Assembly: GCA_024280495.1 (NCBI GenBank)
Contig: JAJRPZ010000052.1
Coordinates: forward strand, 1 to 39,671
Direction of reading: 5' to 3'
DNA length: 39,671 nucleotides
Source: Alphaproteobacteria bacterium
Lineage (GTDB): Bacteria; Pseudomonadota; Alphaproteobacteria; Caedimonadales; UBA9215
Numbering within the stretch: position 1 is the first letter of the stretch; each line of letters starts with the position of its first letter. The position numbers are program-made. Below are positions 6,001 through 12,000 of the stretch, in pieces.

Positions 6001-9000
6001 TGTAACGTTGGTTGTTGAAATAATTACGCAAGACACCAGGTCTTGGATCATTAAGGGATAGGGAAATAATCTGGATAGGGTTGTTTTTATGTTTTTTAGC
6101 TAATAATTCTAAAGATTTTAGTTCTTTGATACAGCTGCGACAAGAGGTTGCCCAGAGGTGTAGAATTGTAATTTTTTCATTTGAAATAATATCTTGAAAA
6201 GATATTTTTCTGGGGGATTTTATCCAGGGTTGATCCTCTTGAAAGGTGAAATTGCGTATTTCTTCTTGGGCAATAATTGTATATTTTTGTGGGAGGGCAA
6301 GGGCGTTATTGGGGAGGGCAGTATACCAAAAGAAAAAAAACAATGGAAATGCGCGATGTATCTGTCTCATAGGTATGTTCAAAGAATCTACTTTATGCTA
6401 AAAAGAATAGGAGATTAATAAAGTTTAGGCAATCAGTGATGTTCTTTTTTCCGACTTTTTTTCGAAATATTTTTTTGAAAAAATATTTTTTTATGGCCTG
6501 GATAGCACTTGTGCTATCGGGAATGACTTTGAGTCTTCAGGGTTGTGGTAAAAGAGGTAATCCACAAGCTCATTGTTAAATGAAAGATACCTTGCCATTT
6601 AATGATCAATAATTACAAAAGAAAGTTTTAAAATATGGCTTTACCTACTATTCATCACCATTTAGGAGATTTACCTGAAGGGATACTATTTCCAAATGGC
6701 GTCGCCATTGATACAGAAGCCATGGGGCTGAATCCTCATCGAGACCGTTTGTGTGTTGTACAGCTTTCTGGTGGTGATAATATGGCTCATGTCGTGCAGG
6801 TTAATTTGGATCATAACTATGATTGTCCTAATTTGAAAAAAATCTTAAACGATAATAACGTTCAAAAAATTTATCATTATGGTCGCTTTGATATTGCCAT
6901 TTTGTACCAATACTTGGGGATCTTAACTACCAATGTTTTTTGTACTAAAATTGCCGCAAAGCTCGTGCGGACTTACACGTCAAGGCATGGTCTTAAGAAT
7001 CTTTGCAGTGAAATGCTCTCTGTCGAACTCTCAAAACAATCTCAAACATCAGATTGGGGAAGTAAAACCCTGACAAAAGAACAGCTGGCCTATGCTGCCA
7101 GTGATGTTTTGTATTTGCATAAGTTAAAAGAACAATTTGATGACGTTTTGATCCGTGAAGGACGTGTGGATTTGGCAAAACGTTGTTTTGATTTTTGCCA
7201 ACGGTGGCTCAATTGGACTTGTTGGGGTATGAAGATTTGTCTCTTTTTAATCATAAATAATAATGAATCAGAAATTGGGTCTAGAAAAAGAGATGGGCTT
7301 GAAAAATAGTACTAACTCCCATGAAATCAACTCTCAAAAAATTTTGAAATTGCCTATGACTAAAAAACAAACAAAAGCTTTCTTAGAAAAAGCACAAAAT
7401 ACACTGTTAATTGAGGCAGGGGCTTTAACGTCCTTAGCTTCTGCTATTATGCTTGATTTATCGGAGCCTTTTGAAAAAGCGGTGGAAGCTTTATATGCAA
7501 CCAAAGGTCGTGTTGTGATTACGGGTATGGGGAAAAGCGGTCATATTGGCAATAAAATTGCGGCGACCCTATCCTCCACTGGAACGCCAAGCTTCTTTGT
7601 ACACCCAGCAGAAGCAAGCCACGGTGACCTTGGTATGATTACGCCACAGGATACGATTATTGCCATGTCTAACTCTGGTGAAACCACCGAACTTTCTGAT
7701 ATTATGGGGTATGCAAAGCGTTATCATATGCCGTTAATTTCTTTCACGTCAAACCCTAACTCTACATTGGCGACTTTGGCTGATATTTCTTTGGTGTTAC
7801 CTAAACACAAAGAAGCCTGTCCCCATGGTCTAGCACCGACGACATCATCCACAATGATGATTGCTTTGGGGGATGCTTTGGCCGTGGCCGTTTTGGAGAA
7901 GCGTGGTTTTTCTGCGGCTGATTTTAGTTTGCTCCACCCAGGTGGTAAGCTTGGTCAGCGTTTAACACCTGTTGAGAAATTAATGCATGGAAAAAAAGAC
8001 CTGCCTTTGTTGTTTCCAGAGGCCTCCATGGCTGAGGCTCTGTTACAAATGACGTCAAAAGGTTTTGGGTGTGTTGGTATTTTGGGTGAGGATCAGGACC
8101 TCATTGGTATCATCACCGACGGTGATTTGCGTCGTCATATGGAAGGGGATCTCATGGGGGCCTCTATCAAGGACGTTATGACACCGACACCGAAACTTAT
8201 CAGGCAGTCTCTTTTGGCTCAGGAGGCTTTGACCATGATGAACGACTTTGGGATTACTTGCTTATTTGTGCGGAAATCAGAAAATGAAATGGATCGTGTC
8301 CCCATAGGAATTTTACATGTTCATGATTGCTTACGTGTGGGATTGACTTAACATTAATATGAAAAAGTAATATATGACTTTGATTGATACGTCTTCTTTG
8401 AAAACAAAAAAAAGTCTCTCCAATGATGCTTTGCGTAAAATGAAACGTCATTCTATACGTGTGAAAAATCTTAGACGTGTCTTGCCTGCACTTTCTATTT
8501 TTCTCATTTTAGGTGTTATTCTCTGGATTAACTTGGATTCTTTTTTAGAAGAAAAAATTGAGGGTATTCCACAGACTGTTAAAAGAATAAGCGTTCTAAA
8601 CAAAGTAAAAAAACCACGTTTTCATATGACCGATAATGACGGAAATCCCATCCGCATTCAGGCAAAGTCTGGCACACAAAAAAGTGACACAAAGACTCAT
8701 CTGGTTGCGCCATCTGCTGATTTTGTTGGACCAGATGGCGAACAAATAACCTTAACGGCTAATAAGGCTTTTATTGATCAAGAAACTCAGAAGTTTGTTT
8801 ATGTGGGGGATGTGCGCTTTATTTCTGATCAAGGGTCTAATAAGGGTTTTGATGTACGAACAGACAAGATTACTGTGAATTTAAAAACTAAAAATATTTC
8901 AAGTGAGACACCGGTTATTGCTTTAGTATCCATGGGGCGCTTGACGTCGCCACAGGGTTTTTTCTTTAAGGGAAAGGATCAAGAATTAACGTTTATTGGT

Positions 9001-12000
9001 GAAACCCGCCTAATTATCTCCCGAGAAAAATATATTGAAACAGAAATTGTTGCTCAGGATGGCATTATTTGTCAGCTCAAGGATAAAATATGCAGGGCTA
9101 AGGGAGGGGTTGTGACCATCAGAAAATCACCAGGTGGCAGAACTAAAATGACCAGTGATTTTTTGCAGGCCTCTTTTAGTAAAGAATCTGGCACAACCGT
9201 ATTGGAAAATCTTATAGCAGAAAAAAATGTGAAAATAATACATGGAAAATTGGGTTTTAAAGCAGTGTCACAGTTTGCTCGTTATAATGTAGCCGAAGGA
9301 GGGACTCTTTTATTAACGGGAAAACCTATTTTGTCTCAAGGTGAAAATGTCCTTTATGTTGGGCGAGAACTCGTTATTAATGAACGGAATCTCACGGCAA
9401 AAACAAAAGGGCGTTCAACCCTCAAAATTATAGATAAATTATTGCAAGCCGATCACATGACTCTTTTTTTTAAAAAGAATTTGGAGGGACGTTTGAAAAT
9501 GGATCATTTGACAGTAAATAGCAATGTAAAACTTTCGACTCCCCATGAGTTTGTCACTGCCCAAAAAGGTGTGTACTATGCAGGCATAAAAGTGGCAGAA
9601 TTATTTGGTAAAGTGCATATTAAGCGAGACATCGGAATCGTTCAAGGTCAATATGCACGATTTGATATGGTCACTGGAGAGAGCCAATTGAAAAGCACCG
9701 TGAAAAAGACAGGGGTGAAAATGCCCCTTGATGAAAGAGTACATTTGGTTTTAGAGCCTTTATAGCTAATCATTTTTTGTTTACACTTTGTTGCTTCGCT
9801 CCTTGGCTATAAATATAGCCGTCGTCCCTTACGCCTCGTGTAAACAAAAAACTAATCAATTATACAACCCAAAAGAATGATGAAAAAGTAGAGAATATGA
9901 AGAAAAAAATGGATTTTGATACAACCGTTGGGCTGACCGTTATAGGGGCAGCTAAAACCTATGGTAATAAACCAGTGGTTCGTAATATTAATTTGCATAT
10001 CCAGCGCGGTGAAGCCGTGGGTCTTTTGGGACCTAATGGTGCTGGAAAAACCACAACTTTTTCTATGATATCTGGTCTTATTTCGCCAACTCAAGGGCGT
10101 ATTTATTTGGATAATATGGATATTACCGATTTGCCCATGTATCGTCGAGCAAGGCTTGGTATTGGATATTTACCCCAAGAATCGTCTATTTTTAGAGGGA
10201 TGACCGTTGAAGAAAATTTAAGGGCTGTTCTTGAAATTTATGAGCCTGACCCCACAACCCGAGAAGACCGTCTTGAAAACCTTTTAGGTGAATTTTTGAT
10301 TGCGCATTTAAGATCTTCGCCAGCTATGACCTTGTCTGGAGGTGAACGCCGACGTGTTGAAATCGCAAGGGCTCTTGCAAGCCAACCTCATTTTATTTTA
10401 TTGGATGAACCTTTGGCGGGTATTGATCCCATTGCAGTCAAAGATATTCGTGAAATGATTTCACATCTTAAAGAACGTGATATAGGTGTGTTGATCACTG
10501 ATCATAACGTGCGTGAAACCCTTTCCATTGTGGATCGTGCATATATCATTAGCGAAGGTCAGGTTCTCATGGAAGGCACACCAGGGGACGTTATTGCCGA
10601 TGAAAATGTGAAACGCGTTTATTTAGGCGACACTTTTTAATTAGGTAACTTTTGGGGCATGACTGTATGTTTCACTGGTTTACGGTGAAAGCGACGGCTT
10701 CTTCTAATTTTAGTTGATTGGTGATGTCATGATAGCTCATGAGATTAGAGCCATCGGGGAGGGGGATGTAAGAAAATTCAATGATTTTTCCGTCACTGCG
10801 GTGGATCTTTCGTGTCTTTTGTTGACGCTCATTTACTAATCCCATGACACGGTTTTTATATTCTTCCCAGTTATTAGTAGGAGAAATAAGATGTCGAACA
10901 TGCTCTGCCAAAGTAGAAATATGCTCGCCGCGCTTCATGATATCTTTAGGAATATTCCAAATATCGGAGAATGCTTGATTAGAGAATTGGAGACGATTAT
11001 CGCTACCAAAAACAGCGACGCCTTCAAAAAGATTGTCTAAGGTAGCACGATGCACGGCTAATTGAGTGTTGTATTTTGCTTCAAGTTTAAGGCGATCGGT
11101 GAGGTCTTCAAAAATATAAAAACTCCCTCCTCTGGGGTGGGGAGACGCAATGATTCTCATGGCACGACCATCGGGTAAATGATTAAGGGTTTCGTGGGGA
11201 GTTGTAATGTTTTTGACGAGGTTAATTTGTTCTTTTTTATAAGCATTGTAGTCTGCGTATTCTGTTAAAAGACGACGGCTACGTAAATTATCTAAAACTT
11301 CACCAAGGTGAGGGGCAGATAATAGCCAGTTTTCGTCAAAATCAAAAGTTCGAGCATAGGATTTATTGTAGTAGGACAATTTTTGTTCTTCATCATAAAT
11401 CGCAACCCCCGCAGAGAGAGATTCTAGAACTTCTCGATAAGAAAAAAGATGTTGACTTAATAGTTTTTCTTTTTCATGTAGGTTTGTTAAATCTTCACCG
11501 TAACCTAATGTGACTCTGCCTGGGAATGGAATTTCTTTAAAATGAAAAAGGTGTCGAGTTCCCTCAAAAACAACGGCTTTAGGTTGATTATCCCCCAAAA
11601 AAATACGATTTAAGGTGGTAAAGGTGAGGGGGGTATCTGAGTAGGAAGCACTTTTGAAGTTTCTTTGTTCAAAGAGTCTAGAACAGGCTGGATTGCAATA
11701 TAAAAGTTCGTGGTTCTCGCGAATCCAGAGAGGCCATGGAAGGTGATCAAAGGCTTGTTTATAAAGCTTAATAGAACTTGAAATCATTTTAGCTTCAAGT
11801 CGTAATGCCGCTTTTTCCGTTTCTTGCTTAGTTGTATCGTGGAGCATGATCACGGCCCACTTGCTGTTTCCTCTAAATGCATGGGCATTCAGTCGATAGG
11901 AATGATGCCCCTTTTTTGTGGTAAGAGTTAAACTAATGGGGCGTTTTTGTTGCTTTAAAGATTGGAAGGCAAAGCGAATTCCCCCATGCTCTGCTTCTTC

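Follow-up and report, generated by a model that had tools for sequence, protein, structure and literature searches.

Which gene provides LptA in this bacterium? The window is a complete contig of 39,671 nucleotides (G000:C75:1-39671; window and contig coordinates are identical), and a preliminary description had reported that lptC and lptA form a single ORF of 463 amino acids between kpsF and lptB. We re-derived the frame, the Pfam domains, and the neighbors of this ORF, and they agree with that report (Table 1). We propose that an in-frame deletion gave rise to a genuine gene fusion, and that its product is one bitopic protein that acts as a covalent LptC-LptA bridge element. We consider this quite probable.

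Table 1. Features of the fused lptC-lptA locus, in window coordinates (res, residues of the fused protein).
Feature	Position	Strand	Evidence
kpsF/kdsD-type arabinose-5-phosphate isomerase, 5' neighbor	7263..8351	+	SIS and CBS domains; TIGR00393 301.5 bits
Fused lptC-lptA ORF, 463 aa plus stop	8374..9765	+	Open frame; Pfam LptC and LptD_N both above cut-off
Cytoplasmic N-terminal segment, basic, res 1-35	8374..8478	+	Alignment to congener LptC N-termini
Transmembrane anchor, LptC TM helix, res ~36-56	8479..8541	+	Sole hydrophobic stretch; AF2 helix 17-64
LptC beta-jellyroll, res ~59-217	8548..9024	+	PF06835 at 59-212, TIGR04409 at 42-212; congener identity 36-40%; fold match Z 13.3-14.4
Fusion junction, res 213-222, LIISREKYIE	9010..9039	+	Alignment to congeners; AF2 strands 211-217 and 221-227 with a tight turn between
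LptA part, N-terminal module, res 221-321, with Cys233/Cys240 and without signal peptide	9034..9336	+	Alignment to mature congener LptA; continuous strands
LptA part, C-terminal module, res 322-463	9337..9762	+	PF03968 at 354-435; fold matches 2r1a_C and 4uu4 on 322-462
lptB, 3' neighbor	9897..10640	+	TIGR04406 362.4 bits (cut-off 240)

The frame begins with ATG and has no internal stops. Both halves are recognized by family models: LptC from Pfam (PF06835) scores 63.3 bits (cut-off 21), LptC_YrbK from NCBIfam (TIGR04409) scores 68.2 bits (cut-off 38), and LptD_N/LptA from Pfam (PF03968) scores 33.5 bits (cut-off 20.4). The NCBIfam equivalog for LptA (TIGR03002) aligns only to residues 395-462, with 42.1 bits, which is below its cut-off of 71.7 and may reflect the divergence of this clade. 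The protein has just one hydrophobic segment (residues ~35-56 by Kyte-Doolittle), and this N-terminal anchor is followed by a periplasmic jellyroll, with AF2 strands from residue 77, as in LptC. The LptA part does not begin with a hydrophobic segment and has no Sec signal peptide of its own. Thus both domains lie in frame behind one TM anchor, with no internal signal peptide and with no other LptA in the 89.3%-complete assembly. There are only two cysteines in the protein, at 233 and 240, and they correspond to the Cys pair at the N-terminus of the congeners' LptA. We also considered internal initiation at an in-frame GTG (residue 247), which has an SD-like AGGGAGGGG just upstream, and rejected it as a source of free periplasmic LptA because its product would have no signal peptide.

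Nothing else in the assembly resembles LptC or a separate LptA. The only full-length match to the fused ORF in its own genome is the ORF itself, PF06835 matches no other protein, and PF03968 matches only LptD and the fused ORF. A second lptA or lptC was not identified in the 1.14 Mb, either by Pfam or by clade-specific HMMs that were run on all six-frame segments with 40 or more amino acids (11,041). These searches bear out the earlier statements that PF03968 is restricted to LptD and this ORF and, as far as the gene content of an 89%-complete assembly goes, that LptA exists solely as an extension of LptC. A free lptA might be hidden in the unassembled ~11% of the genome (completeness is 89.3%), and LptA would then not be solely tethered. 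Such a gene need not sit at this locus, because one family of the order has lptC and lptA on different contigs. However, besides the absence of a further match in 1.14 Mb, a separate LptA is absent from all five of the other one-ORF genomes that we checked, three of which are rated 100% complete: PF03968 matches only the fused ORF and LptD in each of them, and LpxC is present. We think that a second lptA is unlikely.

Comparison with the congeners shows what was lost. As described before, all four have an lptC of 217 amino acids followed by an lptA (283, 287, 288, and 289 amino acids) whose product has a hydrophobic, signal-like N-terminus; the lptC stop overlaps the lptA start by one base. 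The LptC part of the fused protein is 36-40% identical to the congeners' LptC over residues 12-218 and lies at the same position between kpsF/kdsD and lptA-lptB, and the LptA part is 35-39% identical to their LptA over 221-462. (KpsF is 62% identical to a congener's, versus 35-40% for the Lpt halves.) These results support the view that the ORF represents the orthologs of lptC and lptA together; the LptA part is an LptA ortholog by descent, without being a free LptA. In the alignment to the four congeners, the join falls at residues ~213-222 (...TRLIISREK/YIETEIVAQDGIIC..., with the slash at the join), and the LptA part aligns to mature congener LptA from ...PLEITAQNGMIC onward. Measured against the congeners, the fused gene lacks the final few LptC residues, the overlap of stop and start, and some 28 residues from the N-terminus of LptA (the signal peptide and a few mature residues), in agreement with the in-frame loss of the LptC tail, the gene boundary, and the LptA signal peptide that had been described. 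In the comparison with P0003, the split LptA nearest to it, the fused protein picks up again at most a few residues away from ...NAQA/VGPIEV, which to judge from its sequence is the likely end of the signal peptide of P0003.

The two genes had also been said to be separate in all relatives. This is correct for the genomes that we searched, namely the congeners and the other genomes of the order (22 of 22 match as two separate ORFs), but not for P0004, a metagenomic fragment from the same genus-level clade, which is fused with a join that is 10 residues longer.

Could the join be an error of assembly or consensus, with lptC and lptA separate in reality and ~100 bp at their boundary lost from a draft contig? 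The genome is a MAG-type draft (99 contigs, N50 of 17 kb). Two sequencing runs matched it, with small shares (0.13 and 0.11), and no RNA runs did. Contigs from four runs contained identical short pieces only at 8000-8283 (one run) and at 9106-9256 and 9285-9448 (another run); none of them bridges 9010-9040. With neither reads nor an independent contig across the junction, the join rests on one draft assembly. Nevertheless, the loss is exactly in frame and is limited to a dispensable tail and a signal peptide, the contig is 39.7 kb long with ordinary genes on both sides, AF2 models the junction as regular strands, and many independent assemblies have the same architecture. We consider an artifact to be very improbable.

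The AF2 model, which was built from an alignment of 23 rows, shows a single unbroken beta-jellyroll across the junction. The preliminary description had reported a confident fold with unbroken strands from 77 to 440, which we also obtained, although its higher scores were not reproduced: pLDDT came out at 86.3 rather than 89.0, pTM at 0.74 rather than 0.78, and the 10-residue blocks at the junction at 82 (211-220) and 95 (221-230). The fold matches on the two halves were found again, with LptA 2r1a_C (Z 17.1, rmsd 2.1, 125 residues aligned) and LptH 4uu4 (Z 16.5) on 322-462, and with LptC 6mit_C (Z 14.4) on 73-277 and 6mjp_C (Z 13.3) on 73-208.

The model also bears on whether the fused protein might be a precursor, with proteolysis in the periplasm close to the junction freeing LptA and leaving a canonical bridge. 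Cleavage of the linker would be compatible with the sequence. However, the join is predicted to be a 3-residue turn between two strands (211-217 and 221-227), without a flexible linker. The joins in other lineages differ strongly in length and sequence, so a conserved cleavage motif is not evident. An engineered LptC-LptA fusion also works uncleaved in vitro: according to a 2025 Nat Commun article (PMC12065857), it forms a stable complex with LptB2FG and supports ATP-dependent transfer of LPS to LptD between nanodiscs. By the same account, it was built to avoid the oligomerization of LptA, which hampers structural work on the whole bridge (PMC12065857). That fusion is likewise covalent but man-made, whereas the window's protein is encoded by a natural gene in a genome where we found no other lptA. 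Overall, we doubt that the protein is a precursor and give this only a small chance.

We therefore return to the covalent bridge element. An in-frame deletion over the point where the lptC stop overlaps the lptA start would have taken out the tail of LptC and the signal peptide of LptA, and therefore one bitopic inner-membrane protein would be made. From its cytoplasmic N-terminus, it would continue through the TM helix and the LptC jellyroll directly into the long, two-module alphaproteobacterial LptA jellyroll. The TM helix and the LptC part would bind LptB2FG in the usual way and take up LPS, which would slide along one continuous covalent groove, and of the LptA part, only the distal end would have to meet the N-terminal jellyroll of LptD. 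In place of the non-covalent edge contact that LptC and LptA make in the canonical bridge, there would be a beta-turn; LptA and the transporter would then be stoichiometric, and a free periplasmic pool would be absent. We infer that the gene is expressed and that the polypeptide remains intact and transports LPS; the fused protein is probably functional, as a variant of the Lpt bridge.

Alternatively, the gene might be in decay and no longer functional, in a genome that is being reduced and is giving up LPS transport. The genome is indeed small (1.14 Mb, versus 1.5-1.8 Mb in the congeners), and the fused protein lies on a long branch (end branch of 1.69) because its identity to the congeners' proteins is only 35-40%. 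But the frame of 463 codons is intact, the predicted fold is confident, and both conserved cysteines are still there. The other pathway genes are intact as well: besides kpsF and lptB, there are lptF and lptG (C51:3399-5596), lptD (also on C51), and lpxC (on C16). Decay of this kind seems very unlikely to us.

How does the fused protein compare to known systems? E. coli LptA is shorter than the LptA part of the fused protein, which has ~240 amino acids in two modules; the LptA crystal chains that align to it have 135-141 residues. Canonical LptC and LptA (from E. coli; 6mit, 6mjp, 2r19/2r1a, 3my2) have the same two jellyroll folds, whose N-to-C order in the bridge is preserved in the fused protein, and the gene neighborhood kpsF/kdsD-lptC-lptA-lptB and the TM anchor of LptC are also common to both. 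The canonical form is two polypeptides, whereas the fused form is one, without an LptA signal peptide and without free periplasmic LptA, and its sequence is only 12-16% identical to the solved chains. In LptD, LptF, and LptG, the same OstA-clan jellyroll serves as a tethered bridge element that is covalently attached to a membrane domain, and the N-terminal domain of LptD aligns to residues 86-270 of the model (Z 15.3). Those proteins have a single jellyroll on a barrel or permease, while the fused protein joins two consecutive bridge elements.

Similar one-ORF proteins are found in other, uncultured Alphaproteobacteria (such as the P0020 cluster, 443 amino acids, and P0152, which is NCB49228.1, a "hypothetical protein"). 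They also have a TM anchor, LptC, and LptA, and as in the window's protein, the LptA domain begins after those positions of the LptA profile that cover the signal peptide. However, they share only 20-26% identity with the window's protein, they fall in different clades on both half-trees, and their joins differ in length. Some of them have only the C-terminal module of LptA (334-363 amino acids), and one has 570 amino acids. Unlike these, the window's fusion belongs to a genus in which the other members have separate genes.

A full HMMER scan of a library of 1.84 billion proteins placed 21 one-ORF clusters among the best 149 other clusters, and several of the 21 were seen on multiple contigs (of up to 145 kb). 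(A word-indexed search returned only the query and two LptAs, and missed all of the fused relatives.) Within the class, the one-ORF form is present in 6 of 400 sampled genomes (G235, G363, G060, G405, G129, and G289), which represent two families, with three of three sampled members in each. We therefore do not agree with the earlier impression of rarity (2 of 300 genomes, and none of a further 400); the form is much more common than that. At all three one-ORF loci whose flanks were scanned, the fused gene lies between kpsF and lptB. The 30 nearest large ESM Atlas clusters all carry both Pfam families, and the ESM Atlas rows include entries named Acidobacteriota, which are candidate cases. A phylum-level sample of 400 genomes yielded no further one-ORF matches at E ≤ 1e-55, a threshold that would miss divergent forms, so that this result carries no weight for other classes. 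We left P0088 (646 amino acids) out of the fused count, as its middle looks like an out-of-frame read-through that joins pieces of KpsF, LptC, and LptA.

The half-trees point to about 9-10 separate clades of fused forms. The nearest relatives of the window's fused gene on these trees are split, and its LptA part is sister to the split LptAs P0003 and P0015 (support 95/96). An AU test of a single origin for the window's fusion and P0004 gave a borderline p = 0.050, and this pair was picked after the FastTree tree had been seen, so we describe the window's fusion only as likely to be independent of P0004 within the genus-level clade.

The one-ORF LptC-LptA is a real but recurrent arrangement and a new variant of the Lpt bridge, and we found no description of a natural LptC-LptA fusion in the literature that we searched. 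A broader reading, which we put forward tentatively and would not quite call probable, is that the fusion is a convergent solution that was reached many times in Alphaproteobacteria, and that one tethered LptA per LptB2FGC spans the periplasm in living cells. All of the genomes with the one-ORF form that we saw here are 2 Mb or less, and there are hints that one tethered bridge unit is enough. The copy number of LptA per bridge and the need for the bridge to assemble and disassemble are long-standing questions; one paper's title reportedly describes a "transient lipopolysaccharide transport bridge". Organisms that have no LptA besides one attached covalently to LptC would demonstrate that a 1:1 element, permanently tethered to the inner membrane, is compatible with life, and that dissociation of the LptC-LptA interface is dispensable. 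If so, these proteins would be natural test cases for the number of LptA units per bridge and for the opening of the LptC-LptA contact, and their length series (~340, 440-470, and 570 amino acids) could serve as a ruler of periplasm width. Recurrent fusions with jellyrolls of varied length would also be natural constructs for structural work on the whole bridge. In the databases, the one-ORF proteins are labeled "hypothetical" or "LptA/OstA family protein", so surveys for a separate LptC or LptA would score one of the two as missing.

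The preliminary description held that lptC and lptA form one gene here, with LptA as a covalent extension of LptC, and we find both the observation and this core interpretation to be right: Pfam domains, alignment to the congeners, and fold matches all place LptC and LptA in a single ORF (see the table). The draft genome (1.14 Mb in 99 contigs, 89.3% complete) contributes the window as one entire contig. Pfam's LptC model matches residues 59-212 of the fused protein (63.3 bits) and its LptD_N/LptA model matches residues 354-435 (33.5 bits), both above cut-off. The protein also passes the NCBIfam model for LptC (68.2 against a cut-off of 38). 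It is below the cut-off of the NCBIfam equivalog model for LptA (42.1 against 71.7), with residues 395-462 alone aligned. Hydropathy analysis reveals only one hydrophobic stretch, at about residues 35-56. Identity to solved enterobacterial chains is only 12-16%, so docking on E. coli LptFG or LptD may fail.

The fused gene and its neighbors in the window
Feature	Position	Strand	Remarks
KpsF/KdsD-type sugar-phosphate isomerase gene	7263-8351		upstream of the fused ORF
fused lptC-lptA ORF	8374-9765	+	463 codons, uninterrupted
lptB	9897-10640		downstream of the fused ORF

As listed, the kpsF ORF (start region 7263-7350) overlaps the upstream 3'-5' exonuclease ORF (6635-7309) by 47 bases. Its true start is probably further downstream, because similarity to the KpsF of a congener begins only at residue 30. 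A palindromic element of about 100 bp (9766-9866) lies between the fused gene and lptB, with a perfect 14-bp stem (TTTTTTGTTTACAC / GTGTAAACAAAAAA; MFE -21.5 kcal/mol). Elsewhere in this genome, blastn finds it 24 more times (86-100% identity), spread over 17 other contigs, which makes it a small dispersed repeat. It is also matched, with loose ends, by contigs from other runs.

In 40 relatives and in 22 other genomes of the order, our searches matched the query's two halves to different ORFs in every case. In all four congeners, the stop codon of lptC (217 amino acids) overlaps the start of lptA by one base, and the lptA product (283-289 amino acids) has a hydrophobic, signal-like N-terminus. 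If the fused protein is aligned with these proteins, it tracks LptC to '...TRLIISREK' and then resumes at the congeners' '...PLEITAQNGMIC'. Relative to the congeners, the fused gene lacks the last few residues of LptC, the stop/start overlap, and about 28 residues from the N-terminus of LptA. The only two cysteines of the fused protein (233 and 240) match two cysteines of the congeners' LptA. The Lpt halves are only 35-40% identical to the congeners, against 62% for the neighboring KpsF, so this genome is a deep branch of its genus. In one family of the order (f2), each of the five genomes (G006, G009, G012, G014, and G016) has lptC and lptA on separate contigs, so the pair is unlinked there.

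In two public sequencing runs, identical short contigs flank the junction on both sides, and none spans 9010-9040. The indirect case that the junction is genuine is good, as the loss is in frame, only parts that are needless to a fused protein were removed, and many independent assemblies share the architecture. Within the LptA part, a GTG is in frame at residue 247 (9112-9114), just after a strong Shine-Dalgarno-like run (AGGGAGGGG). This run may be a coincidence, as it codes for KGG.

We predicted the structure of the fused protein with AF2 from a 23-row alignment of one-ORF homologues (pLDDT 86.3, pTM 0.74). The model has a long helix (17-64) and then beta-strands that are unbroken from 77 to 440. 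The join is flanked by strands 211-217 and 221-227, in blocks with pLDDT of 82 and 95. For fold comparison, VIA-align was run on the Foldseek matches. Model residues 322-462 matched LptA (2r1a_C, Z 17.1) and LptH (Z 16.5), and LptC from LptB2FGC matched residues 73-277 (Z 14.4) or 73-208 (Z 13.3). Residues 221-321 are an extra jellyroll module, which is also present in long LptAs of the same clade.

In the Lpt pathway, LptB2FG hands LPS to LptC, which passes it on to LptA and thence to the N-terminal domain of LptD, along edge-to-edge jellyrolls; in the canonical bridge, the C-terminal edge of LptC contacts the N-terminal edge of LptA. The fusion joins exactly these two edges, in the same order as in the bridge. 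The simplest reading is an otherwise normal bridge in which a beta-turn would replace one non-covalent contact, and LptA would be fixed at one copy per transporter. A 2025 paper reports that LptB2FG and an engineered LptC-LptA fusion assemble into a stable complex, and that this fusion supports ATP-dependent in vitro delivery of LPS to LptD (PMC12065857). Full-text searches, which covered the main text of openly available papers, gave no description of a natural LptC-LptA fusion, and neither did passages of PMC10794137, PMC10208570, 10.64898/2026.10.02.756314, PMC9938171, and PMC8871954.

Is this the genome's only LptA? In the assembly, PF03968 matches only LptD and the fused ORF, and PF06835 matches only the fused ORF. 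We also built HMMs from the split proteins of the match list (53 LptAs and 61 LptCs) and searched all 11,041 six-frame segments with filters off; they found no further LptA or LptC in the 89.3%-complete assembly. The fused ORF is the only LptA in the assembly and, with the caveat that about 11% of the genome is missing from it, probably the only one in the genome. LptF, LptG, LptD, and LpxC are present, so the pathway is otherwise intact. It is very probable that the fusion is genuine and functional.

The preliminary description had the one-ORF form in just 2 of 300 genomes of the class and in none of a further 400, and this rarity did not hold up. We scanned 1.84 billion representative proteins in full with HMMER and obtained 806 matches (E ≤ 0.001). 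Among the best 150 of these, our LptC and LptA HMMs identify 21 of the 149 other proteins as one-ORF forms. Both Pfam families were found in all 20 of the one-ORF database proteins that we ran. (P0088 was dropped because it looks like a garbled read-through.) The LptA match lies past the signal-peptide positions in nearly all of these one-ORF forms, beginning at profile position ~21-30 or later; in the exception, P0013, it begins at position 18. Their source labels are "hypothetical protein" or "LptA/OstA family protein" from uncultured Alphaproteobacteria, and some clusters occur on several contigs, of up to 145 kb. As a lead, all 30 of the nearest large clusters in an ESM Atlas listing carry both families (395-718 amino acids).

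In a sample of 400 further genomes from the class, 29 rows covered both profile halves, and we inspected each ORF by ORF. Six genomes have true one-ORF genes: G235, G363, and G060 from family f42 and G405, G129, and G289 from family f111. These are all of the sampled members of both families (three of three in each; 1.1-2.0 Mb). The other 23 rows were rejected as adjacent split genes that share a frame by chance; one of these pairs (L031) is from an unpublished genome (G062). Three scanned loci of one-ORF genomes keep the kpsF-fused-lptB order. In all five one-ORF genomes checked (three rated as 100% complete), LpxC is present and PF03968 matches only the fused ORF and an LptD of ~1080 amino acids.

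We built one FastTree tree from the LptC part (132 tips) and one from the LptA part (130 tips), each including 28 fused forms. The fused forms make up 10 and 9 maximal clades, respectively, and Fitch parsimony gives 10 and 9 changes. (P0002, P0088, cluster members P0152-P0164, and the duplicate locus L028 were left out.) From this pattern we infer repeated fusions, and not repeated fissions, since a start codon and a signal peptide are lost far more easily than they are regained. Both trees place the window's protein within its genus's clade, and IQ-TREE on 24 LptA rows places it as sister to the split, signal-peptide-bearing LptAs P0003 and P0015 (support 95/96). P0004, a fragment of 335 amino acids and the best database match, also crosses a join, with 10 residues more than in the window's protein, and falls elsewhere in the genus clade. 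Constraining these two fusions together cost 12.5 log-likelihood units (AU p = 0.050, which is borderline, for a pair chosen after the tree was seen). The window's fusion is a young, lineage-specific case and not a one-off. The one-ORF architecture arose repeatedly, and public data already contain it in abundance, although it has gone unremarked there. This makes the single locus less surprising, yet worth more as part of a pattern.

Lengths vary among both fused and split forms. A short one-ORF class of 334-363 amino acids (P0025, P0048, P0053, P0113, P0131, L040, and L041) matches the LptA profile only from position ~63-132 on, which is mainly the C-terminal module of LptA. P0126 (570 amino acids) has an extra low-complexity insert. 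Certain split LptAs are much longer, at 377-387 amino acids: L015 (G018:C71, LptA ORF 2094-3248), P0104, and P0115. In P0115, a jellyroll module of ~100 residues has clearly undergone a recent tandem duplication, so module duplication is also a way in which LptA length evolves. The open frames for LptD are ~1077-1103 amino acids in the two one-ORF families (G235:C39, G289:C27, G405:C44, G060:C4, and G129:C3), versus 826 in the window's genome.
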